Source: Octopus vulgaris (taxonomy: Eukaryota). From it: a stretch of DNA of 64,000 nucleotides. The DNA lies in the NCBI GenBank assembly GCA_951406725.2, contig OX597831.1, positions 10,354,001 through 10,418,000 on the forward strand. Reading direction: 5' to 3'. The notes below the pieces were generated by a model that did not search any database, was not told where the DNA came from, and saw nothing but the letters and a program-made list of their open reading frames with translations. Position numbers and translations under genes: made by a program. Each line of letters begins with the position of its first letter. Position 1 is the stretch's first letter. Below, one piece after another: positions 2,409 through 61,136 of this stretch.

Positions 2409-3519
2409 GTATGTATACATACATACATACATTCATACATATATACATACAGACATACATACATACATATATATATATATGTGTATCTGTATGCATATGT
2501 GTGTGTGGGCGTGGGTGTGTGTGTGTGTGTGTGTGATTCCGTGTTTGTTCCCAACCACGACTTGACAACCGGCGCTGGTTTCTGCATGTTCCCGTAACAG
2601 CGGTTCGGCCCAAACGGTCTTTAAATTAACAATCACGGCTTAAAATTAAAAAAAAAAAGCACTAGGGGTTGATTCGTTCAGTTGAAATTCTCGAAGGCGC
2701 AGCTTCGGCTTGGTCTTAGGCTAATCACTGAAATTAGTAAAAGAATATAAGAATAAAAGAATAAGTGCAGGTTAGCTGTAGCAGTTTCAGTCCCACTTTG
2801 CTGCATCATGCGCAAGCATCATCTACTCTAGCTCTAGTCTAACCCATGTATGATCGTGTGCGAATTTTTAAAAGGTAACTATGAGGAATCCCATCATATA
2901 TGCGTGTGTACGTCTGCATGTATTTATGTTTTTCTTTGTTTTTATGTTCACCCCACCACCACCATCACCACCATCTCAGGTTGACAACAAGTGTTTGTTC
3001 TGTTCCTTACCTTCTCGTAAGATAACGGCTGGGCAAAAGATTCTGATGTAATAATTAACCAAAATGTATTAGGATTCAATTTTAGCAAATAAATATTTCA
3101 TCGAAGTGCTCCAGCATGACCACAACACGCTGACTGGATCAAGTAAAAGATGAAAGATAAACTATATTAAGTTTGTTTAGGCTACCAACTCTGCTGACCA
3201 CAGCATATGATTACCAAGAGGAATACAATCCGCACCTTATTAACCTTTGTCTTCAAGTTATATTTACGTCGATATAATATAGGAAAATGCAGGCTTTTAA
3301 GAGAAACTCCCATAGGAAAGATTTTGAGTGAAGAATAAAACGGTATCAGACGTTTGAAAGGAAATCCGGGGAACATTGTTAGCTTTTACTTGCGCAGCTA
3401 ATCTTATGTTATTTCCTTCATGTAATCTTACTTGCTTCAGTCATCGGATTGCAGCCATGATGGGACATCGCATGGACCAGTTCAATCGAGCAGAACGCCT
3501 TCAGTATTTATTCATAATT

Positions 3520-3673
3520 CTTTTCTACTCTAGGCACAAGGCCCGAAATTTTTAGGGAGGGGGCCAGTCGATTAGATTGACCTCATTACGCAACCGGTAC
3601 TTAATTTATGAAGAAAGGCAAAGTCGACCTCGGCTAAATTTGAACTCATAACGTAGCTAGCGTTTCTGCCATC
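3520..3673 (-). mobile_element. SINE family B (Nin/Deu-like central domain), tail type 2, with TSD
   Basis: Contains aaggcaaagtcgacctcggc and tail ttcttttctactctaggcacaaggcccgaaa; flanked by tcagtatttattcataatt (3501-3519) and tcagtattgattcataatt (3674-3692). Confidence 0.8.
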
Positions 3674-3836
3674 TCAGTATTGATTCATAATTGCGGTACA
3701 TGTCCTTTTCATTCCTTTAGTTGAACCGTTTTACTCCGGAGAAATAAACAAATCAAACCCGATTGTCAAGTATTGATAGAGAATAACAACATCTCAAACG
3801 TAAAACACTTACGTATATATTCACGTGAGTATATAT

Positions 3837-4066
3837 ATTTCTTTACCACCCACAAGGGGCTAAACATAGAAAGGACAAACAAGGACAGACAAATGGGTCA
3901 AGTTGATTATATCGACCCCAGCGCGTGACTGGTACTTTATTTATAGACCCCGAAAGGATGAAAGGCAAAGTCGACCTCGGCGGAATTTGAACCCAGAACG
4001 TAACGGCTGACGAAATACGGCTACGCGTTTCGCCCGGCGTGCTAATGTTTCTGCCAGCTCGCCGCC
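3837..4066 (-). mobile_element. SINE family B, full length, tail type 1
   Basis: Reverse complement of ggcggcgagctggcagaaac..gttcaaattccgccgaggtcgactttgcctttcatcctttcggggtc..gccccttgtgggtggtaaagaaa; colinear with the copy at 60196-60426. Confidence 0.9.
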
Positions 4067-4233
4067 TTATACAGATTTTCAAGGTTGTGTAATTTTAGTC
4101 CATCAGAATCCTCCATTGCTGACATAATTTTCTTTTCTACTCTACTCAAAGTGGACCTCGGTGGAATTTGAACTCAGAGCGTTAAGACAGACGAAATACT
4201 GCTAAGCATTTCGCCCGGCGTGCTAACGTTTCT

Positions 4234-5894
4234 TCTTTCTTTATTACCCACTAGGGGCGACACAGAGGGGACACCACAAGACATTTGGGACATAGAACAT
4301 TATAATTAAAATTTATGAAGAATGAATTATTAACTGAAAAAATGATAATATGAAAGCGATGCTAACGGCCCCATCCGTTAGCATCACTTACCTGTCCTTT
4401 GGTTTTCACTGTCACTTAAATGTTCATTCCCAATACGAAGACCATCCATACCCATTCTTACTCCGAAATACTCCTCCATATTTTCCACGAATTCATCGCT
4501 CATTCTTGTGTCTTTCACCTCCCAATTCTCCCTTTCACACCTCAACATAAACTCATCTATTCTCTTCTTTTCAATCACAGCATACCTGGTCTCACCTATT
4601 TCATACCATTTATATTCTTCCATTACCCTTTTAACTTCTTTCTGTTCTGTCATAGTACAATTGTTCGGCCTGGGTTCGATTTCAGTCTCCTGTCTGTCCG
4701 CATTAACCTTTCTTTGCTTTCCCGCTGGAGGGGTGCGGGTGGGTTCACCGTCTGCAGGGGAAGGGCGGGACCCAGAGGGCGCGGGTGGTGTTGGGGTGGA
4801 TTGGCGCTCCATGCCACATTCCCCCCTCCCACTCTCCTCCTCCTCCTCCTCCTCCCAGCCCCACTCCACTCCTGCGAACTCCCTTCCTCTTCCACCGTCT
4901 CCCCCTCCTCCTCCCTCTGCGGCTCGGAATCCATTTCCTTCACTGGGGGAGGACAGCAGGCTCCTATGTGACCCCTCAGGCCACACCTGCAACAACGTGG
5001 AGCAACGCCCCCCACCCACACTCCCACGATCACGTCTCCCAATCCGATGCCCTCCGCCAGGTCCACCAGCACATCGTTCTCCGCCTGCACATCTAGTTCC
5101 ACTGTCACGCCCCTCCAGCCCTCGGTCCCAACCGAGGCATGGAGGATGTCCACTCCATCCTCGCGGCCGCCGACCACAGCCGCCACAATCCACTCGGCCT
5201 CAACGCTTGGGGGCACTCCCCCGACCCCCACTCTTGCAATTCCTCCATTCAGATATGTAGGCAAAAGCACTACCTTCTCGGACTTCACCGTCCTCGCCGC
5301 CATCTTCCTTGCTGCACTCTCACCTCTAAACTGCACCACCACAGCACCACACCTTGAACCCCTCGTCAGAAAACCAATCTCCTCCTCCGTTCCTCCCAGC
5401 GCCCCCTCCATCCACTCCATGTTCACCACCTCCATCCTCCTCCCTTCGCCCGCGAACACCCTGCATATGATGGTCCCTCCTTCGCACCACTCCTCACTCC
5501 TGGGTGTCGGTGCCAGCTCGACCACACCGCCCTCGCTCCCCATACATCTCTGGAATCCGGCAGCCCGGCCAAGCCCACCCCCTCTCCTCCGCCCTCCTGG
5601 TCACTCCGGCACAGGTAAGACCCAGTTTCCGGTCTATCCTCCCCACTGCCTCCTCCAACTCCTCCTCAGACGCAGACAAGTCTGATAGGGACTCAAAAAC
5701 TCCAGCCGCACCTCCCATCAGGGAGGGGCCGTCCACATCCTTCCGTCCGACAGACCGAAAACGGCCGCCCGAACAGAAACGCGAAACCGCATCAACAAAC
5801 GCACAAAACTCCACAATAACAACAACCCTCCCACTCACCCCCTGTTCCCCTTTACAAATTTTCACGAGCCGAAAAAAACACAACCGACGTCAAA
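4234..5894 (-). mobile_element. Non-autonomous non-LTR retroelement encoding ORF1 only (HAL1-like, L1/Tx1-type)
   Basis: Sharp GC-rich island. 18-bp TSD cggcgtgctaacgtttct (4216-4233) / cggcgtgctaaggtttct (5895-5912). 3' end carries AATAAA and an A-rich tail. Gag-like ORF present; no RT or endonuclease coding seen. Confidence 0.8.
4384..5718 (-). pseudogene. Gag/ORF1-like nucleic-acid-binding protein with CCHC zinc knuckle; probably two frameshifts
   Basis: CX2CX4HX4C (CCRCGLRGHIGACC) at 4953-4994, preceded by an RRM-like segment (ARVGVGGVPPSVEAEWIVAAV) typical of L1/Tx1 ORF1. Protein-like sequence switches between track ORFs 5494-5883, 4650-5543 and 4384-5193. Confidence 0.75.
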
Positions 5895-6878
5895 CGGCGT
5901 GCTAAGGTTTCTGCCAGCTCGCCGTCCTTCACGTGAGTATATACTTACGTGAATTTATACATATGTATATACTCACTTACGTATATACTCATGCATGCAT
6001 ACACATACATACATACAGGTATATGACGTGCTTCCATTAAATTCAAGGCATGGATTTAATGATCGGGGGTCTTCAGTGAACTACACTTGCCCGAAAGTAC
6101 CTACATGCATAACTTCAATAAATTATATTCTTTTTTCTCTCTTTTTTCCGTCTCAACAAGCGGTATATATATTGATTCTCTTTAGAAAATAGGAAAAATA
6201 CTTCGGAAAATTTCCTTTCGAATCTCTGCGGTCTGAGTTCAGTCTCGAGCAAAAGCAGTTTCTGCTTTCAAGCCTATCGAGATCGATATAAACATATTTC
6301 GAACCCAGGCTGGTTGATTGATAAAAATGAAAGAACGACAGACCGGTATCTTACAATTGTTTTTATCATCTCTTACCGCCTGAGTTCAAATCCTAACAAG
6401 GTCTTCCTTGGTTGTAGATATCGGTATACTTCGAACAACTGATATCCACATGGTTTTATGGTCTCTGGTTTCATTCCTTACTATTTTAAAAAAATTATAT
6501 AACAGGAAACTATTCTTGATGCTAAAATGGAACAGAGAAAGTGATTACAGAGAAACGCCTGTTTTTGTTACAATATCGATGAGGAAGGTAGAGTATCGAA
6601 CTTGCAGAATCATTAGCGTGCCGGACAAAATGCTTACCTGCGATTCGTCAGTCTTTAACTTATGTGTTCAAATTCGCTGACTGATTTCGGCTCTGATAAA
6701 ATAAGGACCAGTTGAGCACTGATGTTGATGCAATCAATCTGCCCTTTCCACCTGTCCTTGAGCTAAAATTTGAAACCGATATCAATGGAGAGAAGCGAGA
6801 GGAACGTAAAGGTATGGGGTTTGAATTTACGTATGGCAATAACGACGACGGCGATGAAATTGAGAAGTGGATGATTGT

Positions 6879-7049
6879 GGCGCAGGAGTGGCTCTGTGGT
6901 AAGTAGCTTGTTTACCAGCCACATGGTTCCGGGTTCAGTCCCACGGTGTGGCACCTTGGGCAAGTGTCTTCTACTATAGCCTCGGGCCGACCAAAGCCTT
7001 GTGAGTGGATTTGGTAGACGGAAACTGAAAGAAGCCCGTCGTGTATATG

Positions 7050-7097
<48 letters not shown>

Positions 7098-7315
7098 TGT
7101 GTGTGTGTGTGTTTGTTCCCTAGCATTGCTTGACAACCAATGCTGGTGTGTTTATGTCCCCGTCACCTAGCGGTTCGGTAAAAGAGACCGATAGAGTAAG
7201 TACTGGGCTTACAAAAGAATAAATCCCGGGGTCGAGTTGCTCGATTAAAGGCGGTGCTCCAGCATGGCCGCAGTCAAATGACTGAAACAAGTAAAAGAGA
7301 AAAAGAGTTAAAGAG
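6879..7315 (+). mobile_element. tRNA-derived SINE family A, full length (resembles octopus OR-type/CORE SINE)
   Basis: A-box-like tggctctgtggt, B-box-like gggttcagtccc, CORE-like ccttgggcaagtgtctt, internal (TA)n(TG)n, and tail ggtgctccagcatggccgcagtcaaatgactgaaacaagt(aaaagag)n. Confidence 0.9.
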
Positions 7316-8667: not shown

Positions 8668-8669
<2 letters not shown>

Positions 8670-8883
8670 CATAGTGATGTAAATATGCCATTTGAATATG
8701 GCTAACCCTAAGGGTGGATGCTACTGTAGTTTTTAGCCCCAGGAAGACATGTCCTCCAGCTGGCTATAGACACACAGAAAGTGTGTCTATAGCCAGCTGG
8801 AGGAGATGTCTTCCTGGGGCTAAAAACTACAGTAGCATCCACCCTTAGGGGTTAGCCATATTCAAATGGCATATTTACATCAC

Positions 8884-8889
<6 letters not shown>
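8668..8889. mobile_element. Near-perfect fold-back element inside (TA)n
   Basis: Arms 8668-8775 and 8781-8889 differ by one substitution and one indel; 5-nt loop agaaa; long (TA)n on both sides. Confidence 0.9.
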
Positions 8890-8946
<57 letters not shown>

Positions 8947-19979: not shown

Positions 19980-20632
19980 TAGACCAGTTATCAATAATAC
20001 TTTCCAATGTTGGACCAGCAATCCCGGTGCAGGGTGTAAGTCGATATATATGGACCCCATTTCCCAAATGGTACTTATTCTATCAACCCCGAAATAATGA
20101 AAGTAAATGTCGATGTCGGTGGAATTTGAGCTTAGAAATTAAAAGACGGATGAAATGCTGCCAAGTCTCTTGCCCAGGATGGTCATGAATCTGTCAGGTT
20201 GCCACCAATAATCGGTTTTTACTTATGGTTTTAAATTATAAGATAGGGTCGGCAGTTTTTGAAGGGATGGCGTGGTCGATTACATCGACCCCAGTTTTAA
20301 ATGATACTTATTTAATCAACCCGATAAGGATGAAAGTAAGGTCGACGTAGGAGAAATGTGAGCTCAGAACGCAAAAGGGACGAACTATCGCGAGGTATTT
20401 TGTTCGGTATGCTAACATTTATAACAGCTCACCGCATTAAATTAATTAATATTCTTTTCTACTTAAGGCACCAGGCCTGCAATTTGCGGGGAGGGGACAA
20501 GTCGATTACATCGACTCTGAAGGATGAAAGGCAAAGTCGACCACAGTAGAATTTAATCTGAGATCGTCAGGACGGAAGAAATGCCGCTAAGCATTCTCTC
20601 CGGGGTACAAACGATTCTGGCAGCTTGCCTCC
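19980..20632 (-). mobile_element. Cluster of three degenerate family B SINEs
   Basis: Three successive blocks resembling ggatgaaaggcaaagtcgac..gaatttgaactcag; the last copy is flanked by ttaaattaatta. Confidence 0.7.
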
Positions 20633-21407
20633 TTAAATTAATTATTAATAATACTAGTAAATTTTCAAAGTTTAAGTCTTTTTATCTCGGGTGATTATTT
20701 AAATAAATTACCATTGTTGCCAGCTTTCACTTAACTATTGTTTACATTTGTAGCAGCATTTTGTTTCCTAAAGATGGTAGCTTCAATCCGTTTTGAATAA
20801 AAGTATATTTTCAGTGGATGCTGCCAACTGTCAAAATCAACAATTTGAATTAAGTTTTTAAATATTAATTTTAATATAGCTTCAATATTATTCAATTAAA
20901 ATATATTGTTTTTGACAGTTAATTAGTGTGGTTAAAGGAAGTTTAACAGCCACGAATAATGCCTTGAATTCAAATAGAGAACATTTAAAACTAGAAACTT
21001 TTCGCAGGCCTTGGCGTCTGATCTTTTCATAGTATTTCTTATTCAGCTCGTGGCATGTAGCTTGTTCGCTTATTTAAACTTGCTGTTGCTATTTGCATTT
21101 GCTTTTGCATTATTGATCGATGTATCCTTCTATTTCTTTGTTATGATGTGGAAACAAGCTTTCGGCAATGTTTGATGTCTCTATTTTTGTTTTTGCTTTA
21201 ATTGTTCCTTTTCAATTTTATAATTCCTTGTTTGAATAGAAAGACAATCACAGTAGATTCCACAAATCTAACACTTTAAAGAATCACTAAAGAAAACATG
21301 TATATTATAACGTAGACTTAATTGGGAACGAAAAAGGAAGGAAACAATGAGATAAAAGCCCACAAATGCAATGTTGTGAATGAAAAGATAACTTTGAAAT
21401 TATTCGT

Positions 21408-21738
21408 GGCACACCGTCGGTTACGACGACGAGGTTTGCAGTTGATTCAATCAGCGGAACAGCCGGCTTGTGAAATTAACGTGCAAGTGGCTGAGCATTC
21501 CACAGACACGTACACCCTAAACGTAGTTCTCGGGGAGATTCAGCGTGCTACAGAGTGTGACAAGGCTGGTTTTTTGAAATACAAGAGAAACATGAAAGAG
21601 TGAGAGAAATTGTGGTCTAAGAGTACAGCAGTTTTCCCCCACTCCCCCACTGCTGAAGCCTCGTGGATCTTTAGATGTTTTCGCTCAATAAACACTCAAA
21701 ACGCCCGACCTGGGAATCGAAACCGCTTTCTCACGAAC
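21408..21738 (-). mobile_element. SINE family C with adjacent repeat segment
   Basis: ttttcgctcaataaacac..acgcccgacctgggaatcgaaaccgc is shared with the copies at 25596-25779 and 42200-42391. Confidence 0.7.
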
Positions 21739-25595: not shown

Positions 25596-25779
25596 AAGAA
25601 AGAGTGGGAGAAAGAGTGGTGAAAGAGTACAGCAGGGATCACCACCCCCTGCCGGAGCCTCGTGGAGCTTTTAGGTGTTTTCGCTCAATAAACACACACA
25701 ACGCCCGGTCTGGGAATCGAAACCGCGATCCTCCGACCGCGAGTCCGCTGCCCTAACCACTGGGCCATTGCGCCTCCAC
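25596..25779 (-). mobile_element. tRNA-derived SINE family C, intact head
   Basis: Minus strand reads ggcgcaatggcccagtggttagggcagcggactcgcggtcggaggatcgcggtttcgattcccagacc, with A and B boxes. Confidence 0.85.
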
Positions 25780-32224: not shown

Positions 32225-32439
32225 GATAGATAGATAGATATAGATATATATATATAGATATATATATATATATATATATATATACGATGCAGTTTCTGTC
32301 TACCAAATTCACGAACAAATAACTAATTCATGGGGAACTATAGTAAAAGTCTTTGCCAATGGTGCTGCATAAAGGATTGAAAACGAAACTACCTCACCGC
32401 TAAAACTTGCAATTTTTGCACCTATATATAATGGCAATA

Positions 32440-32730
32440 ATATTGATTCTAAAGTTTGGAACGATGCCAGTCATTTCGGAGATAAGGCGATGACATCGAC
32501 CTCACTTTTCAGCAGGTACTTAATTATCGATCTGAAAATGGTGGAATGAAAAGTCGACTTTGTTTGAATTTGAACTCACAACGTAGGGACGGACGACATA
32601 CCGCTTAGCATGCTAGCGAATCTGTCGACTCACCTCCCTTACATAAATAATCCTTTCTACTATAAGCACTAGGCCACCTTTTAACTCAGAACGTAACGGC
32701 TGACGAAAGCTTCTGCCAGCTCGGCGCCTT
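32440..32730 (-). mobile_element. Two degenerate family B SINE fragments
   Basis: aaaagtcgactttgtttgaatttgaactcacaacgta and aactcagaacgtaacggctgacgaa..ttctgccagctc. Confidence 0.65.
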
Positions 32731-33741
32731 CACCCTTACGTAAGTAATAATATTACGTTTATATGTATTCTGAAACTTCATGAGGCACATATTCTATACG
32801 AAGGTTATTCTGAAGAATAAGATCCAGATGTACAATTTTCTCTATAGCAAACCCATGAAATAGTTATTTAATCATAGCAGTCTAGACAGGTGAAATATGT
32901 TTCATTTACTATTTAAATTACAAAATTGACGTACATTCAGACATTGAAACTTTCTTGATAAAATATCGTGTTATTTATTTACAAAGATTTTTCTCTCCAA
33001 AATCCAATTCTAGCGGGATCGGCTTAACTTTTATTCTTTATTTTTTGATTTAATTAAATACGTAGCAATCATGTACTTGAGTTGATTCAATCGATTCTAA
33101 CCTGTCCCTGTGAATCTGAGACAGTGCCAACGCAACAAGAAATCACTGTTTAATCATATCGTTATTTGATACATTTTTATCGTTGTCCGTTATTCATTTG
33201 TGTGTCCTACATATGTTCTCTGTGAAATTCATTTTATTTGTCTCTCCGTTCTGATAGAATCATACGATGCTATTCCCACAACATGAGAAACGTGTACTAT
33301 GCTGCCCGTGGGGAAATCAGTTTTAATAAAAACGAGAGCGTGGCGAGCGCTTGAGAAAGCTGACGGAAATCTGAGAAAGTGACATGATTACTTTTTTTGG
33401 AAAAGCAGCAGTGATTTTGTTTTCTTTTGCGGGTATTTAAAAAAAAATATTTCTTGCAACACATGAAGAAATTCGTGACACACGTCAGAGATTAAGATGT
33501 GGTCAGTCGTCGTTTAATTTATGATTAATTTAGGAATGGTCTTTGAGAGGACATAATCTTACAGGTCCCTATTCATATCTTTCTTACAGTGTATTACAAA
33601 TTACTAGGAAACTATTGTTCATAACGAATACCGTGTGTTGGATGTCCCTGCATGGATACCTTTGCGTTTGTCTGAATTTAGATCTTTTGGAATTTTAATT
33701 TAGAATATCACCGGATTGAACCTGAAGATTATGATAAATAT

Positions 33742-42039: not shown

Positions 42040-42391
42040 CGGTCTTCGTCCTGTAGTGGAAGAAGTCCGAATCGTGGTCCTTTGCTATTCGTAAGACCCG
42101 CAGAAGAGAAAGCAGGTCAACCCCCGACAGCGAGAGCATCGGCGGATGGATAAATTCGCATCCAGGCTCAGCGGTTGCGTAGGAAGTCGGGGACCAGAAA
42201 CAGGAAGAAAGAGTGAGAGTAAGTTGGAGCGAAAGAGTACAACAGGGGTCGCCACAACCCCCTGCCGGAGTCTCACGGAGCTTTTAGGTGTTTTCGTTCA
42301 ATAAATACACACAACGCCCGGTCTGGGAATCGAAACCACGATCCTCCGACCGCGAATCCGTTGCCCTAACCACTGGGCCATTGCGCCTCCA
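42040..42391 (-). mobile_element. SINE family C, long form
   Basis: 42200-42391 is nearly identical to 25596-25779; additional GC-rich body continues towards 42040. Confidence 0.8.
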
Positions 42392-42883: not shown

Positions 42884-45086
42884 TATCTACTACACTGGTC
42901 AGGTTCTTGCCCTTTATTATATTCTACGTTATGAATGCTTAACGTGTATCCGAATAAGACTATTCATCTTAGTAAAGCCAATACACCTGGTTCATGTGAT
43001 ATCGCTGTAGGACAAGTCTCTTTCGTCATAGAATTATATTTTTTAATTAGGGTCTTCCATGAAATTTCATATTTTTTCTCAACCAGTCTCCTTCAAGGTT
43101 TGAATCCATTGAGTAAAAATGTATCACTCCTATCACTGTAATTTTTTGGTAAAATATATTCTTCCTTATATTCCCAAAATTTTCATTTTTTCCCTTTCAT
43201 ATTCACAAAAACATTTCTACCTCAGTCTACCTGTCATTATTTGGAACCATATTTTGTACTTTTAAATGTGTTTCTGAAAGTGATTTTTCTTGTTGTTTGT
43301 AATTGTTTAATTCCAGATAAGCCCTGAACAAGCTGCTGTGTAATTAAAAAAACTGGTTGGGCAAGGCTGGAATAATGCTGTAAAATGAAAGAAGCGTCTG
43401 TCTGTTGTGTTTGGGTTATGTTGTACAGCAGCCGTTTCGTCGCCATTTCGTTAAAGCATAATAGAATATGCCACGCTTCAATGTGTCCAACTACGCTTTG
43501 GTCTTGCTTTCCGTCACAGTAAGCTTTACATACCTTAGATTTGGGAACGAATATTCATTTAGTAACCAACGGCGATGTATAGGTAGAATTCTTAATGGGA
43601 AACGAGAAGTCGTACGGTGTCTGTCGTGGCTCTTTATATTCAGAGTTATTCATTGATAGGGTTAATTCAACACCCGGTTGAACATCACTCCTGACTCCTT
43701 GCATGATAATCAGAGAATTAGATGTATTCGAGATAGAAGCACTAACGTCCTAAGCAAAAAGATACCCGATCTTCCTGCACATGAATAAATAAAAGATAGC
43801 TGTAAAATTTATCTCCACAAGCGAAAACTTTAGAAATTAGATTCAAGTTTCACTTGCAGTTTATCTGGTGAAAGTTATGTCTTTCATGAACAGGCTTCGG
43901 CCTCTGGCAAGCAACAGGATAACATATATATAATATAATAATGTGTTGTAGTGACGCAATATATGTCTAGTCAGAAATGCGTCGAGGTTCTCGGCTCATA
44001 AAATTTGACATCGTCTTTTATCTTATCCGGCCACTGCTAATAAGAACGTAAATACATTGATATAAACTTCGTCTGTTTGTAAAAGCAAGAAAATGTAAAA
44101 TATAGAATTAAAAATTGCAGTCATTGGTTGGAATTGAAAATATCGCAGATGAATGGTGTTATCAGCTCATAAGTGTATTTCATAGAATTTATCATTATCA
44201 GCCAAGCAATTGTTCCTGTCCATTGAAAATAAAAATTATTAACTTGAAACAGGTTTCTCTCTGTACAACATGACGGACTCTGGCAATATATTTTGTAATC
44301 AAATATTTTGGTAAAAATAGCATTAACGTTGTTGGCTAAGAATCAGAATTAGAACTAGCTAATGGCATTGATTGTTATTATTCTTAAAACAGCCTTTCAA
44401 TCAAATAGAATAAAACGCATTCATAGCTCATTCTGATTTAATACTAGTTTCCAAGTTTAATTAAAGGAGAAGCAAATAAATTGTCCTACCGCATAAAATT
44501 TAATACCAGACGAGTTATAATTATATTCCGTTGTCATATATTAACCTGAGACACAAAACACACACACAAACACACACATACACCAATATATATAATGTAA
44601 GATGCCATTAATAGCTGTGCAATTATTAATGCCTCATAAGAGTGGACAAAAATAATAAATCCTAAAGATCGTAAGATTTTACAGATCCAAAAACACATTA
44701 AAAAGTACAAAATATGGTCCCAAATAATGACAGGTTGACTGAGGTAGAAATGTTTTTGTGAATATGAAAGGGGAAAAAATGAAAATTATGGGAATATAAA
44801 GAAGAATATATTTTACCAAAAAATTACAATGATAGGAATAATACATTTTTACACAATGGATTCAAATCTTGAAGGAGACTGGTTAGGAAAAAATATGAAC
44901 TTCCATGGAAAACCCTAATTAAAAAATATAATTCTATGACGAAAGAGACTTGTCCTACAGTGATATCACTTGAACCAGGTGTATTGACTTTACTAAGATG
45001 AATAGTCTTATTCGGATACACGTTGAGCATTCATAACTTAACTTAGAATATAATAAAGAGCAAGAGCGTGACCAGTGTAGTAGATA
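42884..45086. mobile_element. Non-autonomous element with ~390-bp terminal inverted repeats
   Basis: 42884-43273 and ~44690-45086 are diverged reverse complements; the paired track ORFs 42935+ and 45030- are near identical. Confidence 0.75.
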
Positions 45087-53970: not shown

Positions 53971-56435
53971 GTACGCAAGTATATGATGAGTACTGTACGA
54001 GAAAAACTCTGATTAATAATATTCTCTTCGTAACCATATCTAAATATTCAATTCCACGTTAGCCTCATAACGTTATGTCGGATGTCCTTCATTTTATTTT
54101 CCTTCATCTATACTAGATAATATTTGCTGTGAGTCAGAGTTAATATATCCTGCAAATCCAGTGATTATTTAGAGGGAGGAGTATTTTGAAAATTACAAAT
54201 ACACTTTTGTATTCCGCTAAAATTCTAGAACTGTTTTCTGTTTACCAGAAATTTTATTTCGCCTCAGAAACAATTCTAATTAATTTGAAACATTTAACAC
54301 TCAAGGCATTCGTATTAAACTTTTTATTCCCCTCGAATTTCTTCAAAGCCGGACCTTCTCAATAAGAATCACCCTAAAATTAATTATGTGAAAATGAGGT
54401 AGGGTTTTTAGAAAGGCTTTGTTTTCCTATTTCTACCATTTTATTTTGAAATTACAAATGTTCTGGTCGGTAGGATACAGGAATTTTGACGGACGTGTCC
54501 ACAGATAACACGCTGTCACAAGGTTTTACACGAAAGTTTAGGTCAATCAATCAATATTCAATATATACTACTGGCTGGTAACAGCATAATTGATTTCTTG
54601 ACTAAAATCGTGACCAGAATTTAACGTAGGAAGGGTGTTTTGGTGCAGTTTCTAGTGCCCTATTGGTTTGCTTCTCCCTAAAATAGATTAGAAAGTAGGC
54701 AAACTCGAACCCAGAGTGATATGCAGAAGCTGCATATTCAATGAATTTAATCGAGTAGGCTCGTCAGCTAAATGTTAAGTTTAGTAGAAATTATGAGTGT
54801 TATTCATTTAGCGGGTTGGGTAGATATTAAAAAGAAAAAGAATGCATAAAGTTTTACAATATTTATCAGATACCGCTGACGCAACAGCCATCATCATAAC
54901 CACAATTATAATAAAGATAAAACTGTTATTGAAAAATTCCACCATGGCTAACAGCTATCATACCACTCTCACCATAACAACCATTACAAAACCGACATTG
55001 TATTTAACCTTAACGAGTGTTATATTTGCTCAAAATTAAGGCTACAACTAATGATGCGGTGCAAAAGAAAAGCGAAAATTAATATATGTATTGCCAGAAG
55101 AAGGATTTGGCTTCCTCTGTTTGTTGAATGAAATCTGAATAATTAGAACGTCAAATAAATTGGAAATATTGCTTCTAATTGTCTTCTAAGTCCAGACGTA
55201 TTTTATACAATGCCTGAATATATAAATGAAGCGGCAGAGATAAATTAGAAAGTAAATGACACCGTCACTGACCCCCTGACCTTTCAATTAGTGACATGTG
55301 TTGCAAGATTTCCCCAAAATATCAGTAATCAATGCGATATCGTAATCGTTCTTGTTACGTTGTTGCAGTTAGATATATATATATATATAAAATTTTATAG
55401 TCACAAATTGTAACTAAGGGTGCTTCAACCCCCTTTGTTACAATTAGCGACGACAAAATGTATTCTTTATGGTGTGGTATTAGGCATAACTGGTTATATT
55501 AATTTATATATATATATATATATATATATAGATATATACAGGTTAGCTAATCAATTGTTTTTTTCTGATTTGTGGTGAGTAAATACTTGTTATAGAGTAA
55601 CTTATTCCGGGCAGTATTACAAGTTGTACAACGTCTTGTTTGTGCAGATGTTCTCTATGTTTCATGGCATTACGTAACTATAAAGAAGCACCAATTCAGA
55701 CACATACATATACCTATAACATATACCTATAAATTCAGACATATAAAAAAAAAATGCGAACACTTAGGTTGATATGCAAAAATAAATATAATTTCTATAA
55801 TTAAAAACGCGGTTGATTAGCAGAAGCTTTACAACGTGGAATAAAATTATATGCGGTAAATTCCCCAACGCCTCATTTAGAATCAAAAACTCAGATCGAT
55901 ATAAACAACTGCAGCCTCCTCTAGATCATTATTACTATCACATTCTCCTGGTAACGGACATTTCAAGACCTGGGTTATTATTCTGAATCATACATAATAT
56001 TTTGAATCAGGCTACGCGAGAACGATTGCCGTAATACCCGGGCGATATCGCACGTCTGCTCTATGTCGGATATTTTAGAATATCCGATATATTGGATATT
56101 TCATGTATCGTTATATTTACTTTTTATCAGTAGTAGATCTGTGGCCAAATTGGGGCATCGCCTTTATGTCCTTCACTGTTGCAGTATCGTGCTTATTATA
56201 TTAGTCTCTTTTGCAGAAGAGCTAATTTACAGGGACGTAAACACACCAACGCGACTTGCCAAACGGTCGGAGAGGTAAACGTAAATACAGCGATGCACAC
56301 ATATATATTTATATACATGTATATGTCTATGATACACACACACGCACGCACTTAGATGCACACAAATATATATCTATATCTTTATCTAAATCTATTTATC
56401 TGTGTATCTATCTCGGTGAGACCTCATATACTTTT

Positions 56436-56507
56436 GGTCTCATGGTGTAATGGTTAGCACTCTGGACTCTGAATCCAGCGATCCGAGTTCATGTCTCGGT
56501 GAGACCT
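56436..56507 (+). tRNA. trnQ-CTG: tRNA-Gln(CTG), possibly a retroposed copy
   Basis: 72-nt cloverleaf: acceptor GGTCTCA/TGAGACC, anticodon arm CTGGA-CTCTGAA-TCCAG (CTG at 56469-56471), T arm CCGAG-TTCATGT-CTCGG (A58 replaced by T), then trailer catatac and T6. Confidence 0.9.
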
Positions 56508-56514
56508 CATATAC

Positions 56515-56520
56515 TTTTTT
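56515..56520 (+). terminator. Pol III oligo-T terminator
   Basis: TTTTTT 7 nt after the tRNA discriminator base. Confidence 0.7.
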
Positions 56521-59018: not shown

Positions 59019-60195
59019 TGAGAGAAAGAGATAGGTGGATAGTTGGATGAATGGATAGATCGGCATAAATCTGCTGCCAAATAGACTTACAGCAGACACA
59101 TCTAATTCTTGATGACCAAGAACATCGGTGAAGGAATTACGAAATGCCCACGCAACAAGGTGTTCCATCCTCTGCCTATTTTATCTCCCAGCCCATCTAT
59201 TCTTCTCTCGCTAGATCTATTTTCACTTACGTTCCATATTCCGTGCTACTAATTTCCCATTACTTGCAGTTGTTCAAACCTAATACTAACAACATCAGCC
59301 TAAGCAATCTGGGAATTAATGTCGATATCAAAAGACCGACCTTCTCCCGCATATGCACAAATATCAGACTAATTTTTAAAAATATAATTAACAGAAATAT
59401 CTATGGGGGCGATGTTAGTGGTGCTTGCTTTATTTACAGTTGGTGACATTCATCGTTAAAAGGAAAACAAAACACGAAAACCTTTAGTATCAGAAATGGC
59501 GCTCCCGTTATCTAAAATTTCTTTCAATAACCACAACTTGTTTATCAATTATTTACACCTTCATAATGTTTAATAAACAAGTAGATGTCGAACATTTAAT
59601 GGAATTCATAAACGTCTTTTAATGTGTTTACGTTTTAGAGAATTTCGTCATGCTAAATGAACATTTTTATTCCAAAGCATCTAAAAATCATTAATTTACA
59701 TGCAATATTTTGGAGACGTAATTGGAAAATGTCTACGGTTAATACATCTACGTTGGAACCATACGATCTGAGAGTACAGTATTTTTGCAGTATCTCTATC
59801 GATTTACTTGTTATTTCTTGATTATTTTTTGTAATGTATCGAGATATCCGGAATGAAAATGTAAAACAATTTTGAAACTATTTCTGTTGCATCTACAAGA
59901 AAAACAAAGCCATAATATTTTTAGGCTACGATTTAGTTATTGGTTGGTTTCATTTTTATAATTTTATGCTTAAGTTGTTTTATCTGAGTTCACTAGAAAG
60001 GAAAACATGTTCGGTCTCTCATTTGGCCAACATATTCTTGTTTCTTCTGTTTTTACTGTTATTGCTACAATACATTGAAAGACACTAATACAAAACGCTC
60101 TGCATCTGTCTCCATCCCGTATTTAATATGCATTCAAGGTTGTGTTATCAATTCTCCAAGGCGGTAAATAGACGTTTACCGCCTTGAACAAGAAA

Positions 60196-60426
60196 GGTGG
60201 CGAGCTGGCAGAAACGTTAGCACGTCGGGCGAAATGCGTAGCCGTATTTCGTCTGCCGCTACGTTCTCAGTTCAAATTCCGCCGAGGTCGTCTTAGCCTA
60301 TCATCCTTTCAAGATCGATAAATTAAGTACCAGTTACACACTGAGCTCGATGTGATCGACTTAATCCGTTTGTCCGATCGTGTTTGTCCCCTCTATGTTT
60401 AGCTCCTTGTGGATAGTAAAGAAATA
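60196..60426 (+). mobile_element. SINE family B, full length, tail type 1, with TSD
   Basis: Colinear with 3837-4066; TSD ggtaaatagacgtttac (60163-60179) / ggtaaatggacgtttac (60427-60443). Confidence 0.9.
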
Positions 60427-61136
60427 GGTAAATGGACGTTTACTGATATTTAACTGCTATGTCTGGTAGTTCGTGCAACTGATTTATTGGTCAGCCACTA
60501 GTACGGCCCGAATATTATTTATTTTCTATCTTTTATATACATCATTTCATAAACTTTAACTTGTAGAGGAGCCAACAAACTATATACACACGCTATAAGC
60601 TAAATTCAACAACATATGCAGACGATTTACTCAACAATTTTATAAAGCAAACACTGCTGAAAGTATTGAGAGATTTTCTGCCTTGAAATACTGTATAATT
60701 CGATATCTAAATATTTTAATATCTGACGGAAAATAACATCAGATACGGAAACAAATTAATGCTCTTCCTTTGGCTGCCTGCCTGGTACGTTACGGACTCA
60801 GCCATGTCCTTCGCCATATATTATGTCCAAATTGATCTCCTAAATGAAATCACAATTGTAATACTTAAGGAGTTAGAAAAGCTTCGTAAATTGATACTGC
60901 CTTTCGTGAATGTTGTTACGATGAGGGTAAAATTACTAACTGTTAAATGGACTACATGAATGTCTGCTCTTGATGTTAACAATTTCTGAACACTTACTAA
61001 ATACACACACACGCATATGTACGTAGCGAGAGAGAAAGAGAAAAGAGGTAGATAGATAGGTAGGTAGGTAGATAGATAGTAAGATACATACATACATACA
61101 TACATACCTACATACATACATACATACATACATACA

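Follow-up and report, generated by a model that had tools for sequence, protein, structure and literature searches.

Octopus vulgaris harbors an element that codes for a LINE ORF1 protein alone and ends in the same sequence as certain SINEs of its neighborhood, which raises the question of which enzyme copies it and whether that enzyme also copies the SINEs. The window, i.e., the whole 64-kb stretch of DNA analyzed here, has a GC content of 35% and is rich in microsatellites and SINEs; the features discussed below are collected in Table 1. The earlier note on this DNA had called the element ORF1-only, and this is borne out: it specifies a type I ORF1 and lacks ORF2, for which there is no room because the ORF1 stop codon lies just 150 nt from the element end. 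These 150 nt of 3' UTR show no visible junction with other repeats. The element is a retrotransposed unit, bounded by an 18-nt target-site duplication whose two copies are identical at 17 of 18 positions. The family-B SINE head that precedes it starts at 5927 and, beyond the element, continues in register from 4233; the stretch of head at its 5' junction is thus target duplication, and a SINE-derived 5' end of the element is ruled out. With respect to the predicted stem-loop over the ORF1 stop codon, the 3' arm has 8 nt in common with the SINE-head target site, and the structure is bracketed by a consensus 5' splice site and a pyrimidine-AG 58 nt downstream; either may be due to chance. A scan of 3400-6100 against Rfam gave only chance microRNA-type matches below the gathering score.

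Table 1. Coordinates of the element, its host SINE, the tail-bearing SINEs and their flanking duplications (positions in the window)
Feature	Position	Strand	Remark
ORF1-only element	4234..5894	-	1,661 nt, 55% GC; no second copy in window
Shared 3' tail	4236..4273	-	38 nt; within element
Predicted 15-bp stem-loop	4354..4389	-	over ORF1 stop and start of 3' UTR; whole-UTR z -1.4
Likely C-terminal part of ORF1	4384..4800	-	another frame; ends with TGA 4386-4384; weak
ORF1 core frame	4911..5600	-	two RRM-like (ferredoxin-fold) domains, residues ~31-119 and ~118-198, then knuckle
Single CX2CX4HX4C knuckle	about 4953-4994	-	in ORF1 core frame
Possible N-terminus of ORF1	5601..5718	-	third frame, ATG at 5718; inferred only
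18-nt target-site duplication, 5' copy	5895..5912	-	inside family-B SINE head; 17/18
18-nt target-site duplication, 3' copy	4216..4233	-	begins 2 nt past tail
Host SINE, 5' part of head	5895..5927	-	upstream of element
Host SINE, remainder	4135..4233	-	internally deleted; different (second) tail type
Perfect 16-nt repeat, 5' copy	5928..5943	-	flanks host SINE, spacer and 3.8-kb SINE
Perfect 16-nt repeat, 3' copy	3820..3835	-	begins 2 nt past tail of 3.8-kb SINE
Full-length family-B SINE with shared tail (3838-3877)	3836..4068	-	likely 3' half of SINE dimer
Second full-length family-B SINE with shared tail (60385-60424)	60196..60426	+
17-nt duplication of 60-kb SINE, 5' copy	60163..60179	+	16 extra nt before head; 16/17
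17-nt duplication of 60-kb SINE, 3' copy	60427..60443	+	begins 2 nt past tail

The three strings that had been quoted as a shared tail are all present in the window: that of the element at 4236-4273 (minus, 38 nt) and those of the SINEs at 60385-60424 (plus) and 3838-3877 (minus), the last of which had been placed at 3837-3878. The claimed match between the element's 3' end and both SINE tails holds. In an alignment with one 2-nt gap, the element tail is identical to that of the 60-kb SINE in 32 of 40 columns and to that of the 3.8-kb SINE in 31 of 40; the two SINE tails agree with each other in 35 of 40, and in every one of the 5 columns in which they differ, the element agrees with one of the two. 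The local alignment scores obtained with the element's last 100 nt (55 and 57) were reached in none of 5,000 dinucleotide shuffles, whose scores have means of about 22 and maxima of 45 and 48. Against 2,556 tiles of 100 nt from the window, the element scores best, itself aside, with the two SINE tails (55 and 51); the next score is 44. Likewise, the last 60 nt of the element score 52 and 49 against the two tail-bearing SINEs, versus 10-21 against eight other family-B ends and one end from another SINE family. Similarity in the 32 nt upstream of the tail is not significant (1,167 and 218 of 5,000 shuffles), and the shared part is hence about 40 nt long. It is terminal in all three sequences, and in the element it holds CCC-N4-GGG and an AATAAA hexamer, with no poly(A) thereafter. 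The sample comprises one element copy and two tail-bearing SINE copies in the 64-kb window; a pattern search, with a pattern built from those same copies, returned these three matches and no fourth. The pattern had no match in prokaryotic genome contigs, and short motifs of the tail are absent from the supplement files of PMC4824008 and PMC11481361 and from files 1-12 of PMC10294476.

That the resemblance arose by chance, or by local duplication from the neighboring SINE 170 nt away, is extremely improbable. The tail is indeed short (40 nt) and of simple make-up, T/C-rich and then A-rich, and one of the SINE copies is adjacent, but no shuffle equaled the scores, the match is terminal in all three cases, and the flanking duplications lie in identical register (see below). 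Moreover, the SINE hosting the element ends in the second tail type and was hence not the donor of the element's tail; since the copy 56 kb away also matches as well as the adjacent one (32 versus 31 of 40), the tail is not a local duplication. The hairpin ascribed to the tail fares less well. The element and the 3.8-kb SINE both have CCC-N4-GGG literally, but the 60-kb SINE has TCC-N4-GGA, i.e., a compensatory C-G to U-A change. The 3-bp stem is thus kept in all three tails with one compensatory change, a degree of conservation as high in 155 of 500 shuffles; this lack of significance reflects the fact that there are only three sequences. The fold z-scores are -1.4, +0.6 and -0.5.

The earlier note had spoken of family-B SINEs, but the tail is seen in just two of the 11 aligned copies, the other nine having different ends (the alignment does not include further short fragments around 32.7 kb and 38.4 kb). 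All 11 have in common a head and a body of ~95 nt each, and diverge thereafter; by eye, two end in the shared tail, three, including the host of the element, in a second type, and six older ones in a third. Family B resembles, and may belong to, the MetaSINEs, a superfamily in which a 66-bp Meta-domain follows a tRNA-derived head. The several tails found on one family-B head and body correspond to the tail-exchange pattern of MetaSINEs, in which partner switching appears as one head and body with several tails (PMC4824008). A short-motif search of two supplement files of that study gave no match, and the SINE heads are not recognized as tRNA by ARAGORN. Family-B SINEs also form clusters, with two or three copies arranged head to tail on the same strand, at 19990-20640, 32435-32735 and 3512-5927 (all minus), which suggests either read-through multimers or insertion beside older copies. 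At 32675-32745 (minus), there is a head fragment like that of the shared-tail subfamily, with ACGT just upstream and its 3' part missing. The window also has a second SINE family, which is longer, contains an internal microsatellite and ends in an unrelated tail; its copies lie at 6874-7310 and near 31.4, 48.7, 58.5 and 62.9 kb.

Other repeats of the window include a tRNA-Gln(CTG) at 56436-56508, flanked within 56425-56520 (plus) by an 11-nt direct repeat, as for a putative retroposed tRNA copy with a target duplication. A near-perfect foldback of ~220 nt at 8668-8890, between two TA microsatellites, could be either a MITE-like element or an assembly artefact. The 283-nt inverted arms at 42915-43197 and 44768-45050, which are 92% complementary and lie 1,570 nt apart, are possibly the ends of a DNA transposon.

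Beyond the tail itself, the three shared-tail insertions have a common footprint: their duplications measure 18, 16 and 17 nt, the right copy starts at offset 2 in each, and none shows poly(A). These values come from a flanking-repeat search over 11 intervals, in which the tail-bearing insertions form a small sample (n=3). The longest flanking repeat of the seven intervals with other tails is 13 nt, and only three of 300 random intervals have a repeat reaching 16 nt. The 3.8-kb SINE taken alone has no flanking repeat, as it should if it is the 3' half of a dimer. At the other family-B copies, the missing duplications may be an age effect, given that these copies have decayed further and that their ends were placed manually. 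The common footprint of all three insertions makes it likely that one copying enzyme was borrowed by them. Of the features expected of a stringent LINE-SINE pair, the homologous terminal tail and the common footprint without poly(A) are present here, and the stem is kept in all three tails without reaching significance.

The target sites are alike in other ways. ACGT is present in all three shared-tail duplications and in 4% of the 17-mers of the window, and the chance that three random sites have a 4-mer in common is 0.0008 for one containing CG and 0.066 for any. Since the motif was noticed post hoc and does not occur in one register across the duplications, it offers only a hint of a possible target preference, a trait of many, though not all, Tx1 members. 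Strict targeting of SINE heads is ruled out, as one of the three insertions lies in a SINE head and two lie elsewhere; family-B SINEs make up ~4% of the window. The element end and the first target bases are both A/G-rich and alike, a likeness that would allow pairing at priming. The 5' duplication of the 60-kb SINE lies within an 11-bp inverted repeat (60143-60195, plus), and the 16 extra nt at its 5' junction possibly stem from a template jump or fold-back.

The 16-nt footprint belongs to a nested locus. The host SINE is followed by a 67-nt spacer and then by the full SINE at 4068-3836, and this entire block is enclosed by the perfect 16-nt repeat, which occurs only at these two positions and is likely the target duplication of a SINE-dimer insertion. 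The flanks on both sides of the block form one palindromic low-complexity patch. Without the element, the block measures 415 nt and has no run of four T, whereas the element has eight such runs; this pattern would fit Pol III read-through for the dimer and not across the element. Movement of the whole 2.1-kb block as one Pol III transcript is ruled out by the eight runs. From the 16-nt repeat around the block and the distribution of the T-runs, we infer the likely order of events: a read-through SINE dimer would have been inserted first, and the element then into its head.

The coding region of the element extends over three overlapping frames between 5718 and 4384, indicating that the gene has been frameshifted twice. 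A search of 1.84 billion representatives with its core gives 128 homologs at E<=0.001, of which the best is 51% identical; at identities below 50%, they form more than 100 clusters. Three dispersed repeats of the window are also matched by one of these homologs, and hence some of the homologs come from a closely related genome. These repeats (21445-21726, 25673-25738 and 42286-42351, plus) are translated inside the gene model P0055, which also contains LDL-receptor repeats and a related ORF1 fragment. The AlphaFold model of the core (40-row alignment; pLDDT 87, pTM 0.66) displays two alpha/beta domains and a knuckle. All nine Foldseek matches at E<=0.001 are tandem-RRM proteins, and VIA-align superimposes residues 31-119 on the La RRM (Z 9.0, rmsd 2.5, 81 aligned) and residues 118-198 on an ACT domain (Z 8.2, rmsd 2.2, 76 aligned). 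Thus, as modeled, the element protein is a type I ORF1 with two RRM-like folds and one CCHC knuckle, and is predicted to bind RNA. The knuckle is conserved in 16 of the 128 homologs, and none of these 16 has a second one in the 17-293 residues that follow.

The flanking frames are less clear: that at 4384-4800 shows a weak similarity to the closest homolog (21 of 66 residues identical, pairwise E 0.001), which a profile of eight homolog C-termini did not confirm beyond low complexity, and the candidate N-terminus at 5601-5718 has no similarity to the one homolog compared. Pairwise comparisons other than that of 4384-4800 were negative. In Pfam, the two element frames had no meaningful match, and Transposase_22, the type II ORF1, is not among the 25 families listed for the 40 aligned proteins. 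A word-index protein search recovered no match with the single ORF1 protein and one with the alignment; among proteins of 1,092-3,115 aa, it recovered no long fused homolog, which is weak evidence. None of 89 candidates in prokaryotic genome contigs was confirmed as an ORF1, a sequence search of solved structures yielded knuckles only, and a viral fold search yielded generic RRM proteins.

An ORF1 and a tail need not share an origin. One possibility is that the ORF1 element or its family acquired its 3' end from a SINE or an unrelated LINE, via template switching or recombination, and rides the enzyme of a clade other than that of its ORF1, e.g., RTE, a clade without its own ORF1. We consider this, the main rival reading, unlikely, although an identical footprint would be expected whichever donor gave the tail. 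The divergence between the element and SINE tails (5 events in 35 columns, P=0.13) is likewise within chance for a captured copy; a gap-free alignment (29/40 and 28/40), under which the excess divergence had a P of 0.001, was dropped in favor of the gapped one. ORF1s have also been shuffled between LINE lineages (PMC4120745), and RTE elements have expanded in cephalopods (PMC10294476). Against such a capture, the sharing stops ~40 nt from the end, within the subfamily-specific tail of the SINE, and the SINE body is absent from the element. Moreover, AATAAA is canonical in the element and occurs in variant forms in both SINE tails, and the 3' UTR lacks a visible junction that would mark a join to another repeat. 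We prefer the reading in which the tail is the element's own LINE-derived end.

With regard to the lineage of that LINE, we favor Tx1 as the likeliest parent of the element and tail, with somewhat better than even confidence, on account of the single knuckle, the long duplications and the very diverse ORF1 family; duplications of 16-18 nt are longer than usual for CR1. Type I ORF1s are known from I, Jockey, R1, Tad1, L2, CR1 and plant L1 elements, and Table 1 of the same study gives three CCHC knuckles for Jockey, CR1 and most L2 subgroups (PMC4120745); the element, with its one knuckle, departs from this pattern. For animals other than mammals, type I variants have been described as consistent with Tx1 (PMC5203782), and the RRM and CCHC domains of the element agree with Tx1 without being specific to it. 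In the L1/Tx1 tree of Octopus sinensis, there is a large species-rich cluster, and supplement files 4 and 12 of the same source, with columns told from the PDF layout, give 389 CR1, 255 RTE, 302 Tx1, 43 unplaced I-group and 0 Nimb elements (PMC10294476).

A somewhat unlikely, though serious, variant is that the pair is real but has a CR1 or I-group parent, the element being a derivative akin to Ag-Sponge or HeT-A; it overlaps our preferred explanation and differs only in the clade. The broad occurrence of type I ORF1s listed above would permit it, shared tails are routine in such LINEs, and the partners so far found for mollusc SINEs are CR1, CR1-Zenon, L2 and Nimb (PMC11481361). Octopus sinensis has both CR1 and the unplaced I-group clade (PMC10294476). 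Among the leads from a protein-language-model atlas, all of which are under 0.9 and do not separate the clades, DUF4780 (0.86) and PRE_C2HC (0.85) would point the same way; the others are RNA-binding domains of the ZCCHC3 type (one at 0.89, with 12-13% of members, and one at 0.82, with over 80%). With their links to Tx1 and to insect LINEs, these leads point both ways. However, besides the knuckle count and the duplication length, the element end lacks a tandem repeat, and the large octopus Tx1 radiation (PMC10294476) would fit a homolog family with so many clusters (more than 100 at identities below 50%). The clade was not placed by a tree of 37 ORF1 rows, which was built with a quick method, contains no named reference and omits three rows shorter than 150 aa. 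No autonomous LINE was seen in the window: of 362 other ORFs over 55 aa, 213 passed a complexity filter, and the 138 longest of these had no Pfam match at E<=1e-4.

Returning to the preferred reading, we consider it quite probable that one LINE enzyme recognizing a LINE-derived tail mobilizes both the ORF1-only element and the tail-swapped SINE subfamily. The ~40-nt tail would likely act as the recognition signal for the enzyme of an autonomous LINE as yet unseen. The element would have originated from such a LINE by loss of ORF2, with the 5' region, ORF1 and 3' end kept, and the family-B SINE would have acquired the 3' end of the same LINE family via tail exchange. The LINE enzyme would bind the tail sequence rather than poly(A), and nick a target tending to contain ACGT; reverse transcription would be primed at the tail end, and the second strand cut 16-18 nt away. 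By such target-primed reverse transcription, the LINE reverse transcriptase/endonuclease would copy the element and the SINE subfamily in trans. At this locus, it would have acted on the ~415-nt SINE dimer first and afterwards on the element, placing it in the head of the dimer. The bolder proposal, i.e., that an animal Tx1 lineage recognizes a tail instead of poly(A), serves a SINE and a half-element, and prefers ACGT targets that include the heads of its partner SINE, is tentative and falls a little short of an even prospect.

Shared LINE-SINE tails and ORF1-only LINEs are both already known, and with a CR1 or I-group parent, the present case would be a routine new pair. It is an animal Tx1/L1-type parent, if proven, that would make the tail sharing unusual. 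If true, an animal Tx1 pair would extend the strict, sequence-recognizing side by a deep branch, offer a compact test system in which a 40-nt signal is combined with a SINE and with a protein-coding half-element, and identify an enzyme responsible for part of a very large SINE expansion. Provisionally, neither an animal Tx1 tail pair nor this element was found in the literature covered, which excludes Repbase, Dfam, most subscription papers and the first descriptions of SINEs from octopus and squid; neither turned up in passages of PMC4758252, PMC5753468, PMC9115989, PMC8967140, PMC11203168 and PMC3787270.

The known ORF1-only non-autonomous LINEs are HAL1, derived from L1, HeT-A, from Jockey, and Ag-Sponge, from CR1 (PMC5786205, PMC5753468). 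Like them, the octopus element combines a LINE 5' region, ORF1 and 3' end with the lack of ORF2, and has a target-site duplication. Unlike them, it ends in a sequence-defined tail with no poly(A), has this tail in common with a SINE with a tRNA-like head, and is inserted in the head of that very SINE family. It also differs from HAL1 proper, which has the type II ORF1 of mammalian L1 (Transposase_22) and a poly(A) end, in that its ORF1 is of type I, with two RRM-like folds and one knuckle. The earlier note considered a sequence-specific tail in the L1 group notable; such tails are, however, known from the stringent L1-clade pairs of maize (LINE1-1_ZM with ZmSINE2/3) and Chlamydomonas (L1-1_CR with SINEX-3_CR) (PMC3747384), and it is the animal or Tx1 case that would be new. 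As in these pairs, about 40-80 terminal nt are shared and include a small hairpin with a compensatory change; they differ in that their autonomous partner is known, whereas here the genome is that of an animal, the partner is unseen and the hairpin, which is not significant, has only 3-4 bp.

The MetaSINEs and the conserved-domain SINEs of mollusks likewise join one head and body to alternative 3' tails (PMC4824008, PMC11481361, PMC4758252), but the partners reported for the latter, in bivalves, are CR1, CR1-Zenon, L2 and Nimb, and the main text of PMC11481361 does not name Tx1. The closest Tx1 parallel is the crocodilian SINEU, whose partnership with Tx1-Mar was deduced from the targets that the two have in common; a LINE with the 3' end of SINEU-1 was not found there, and all SINEU end in poly(A) (PMC4494074). 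Both cases would involve a SINE mobilized by a Tx1-type enzyme, with a 16-nt duplication, and Tx1 families that prefer another repeat as their target. They part at the 3' end: SINEU terminates in poly(A), whereas the octopus element and its SINEs terminate in a sequence-defined tail.
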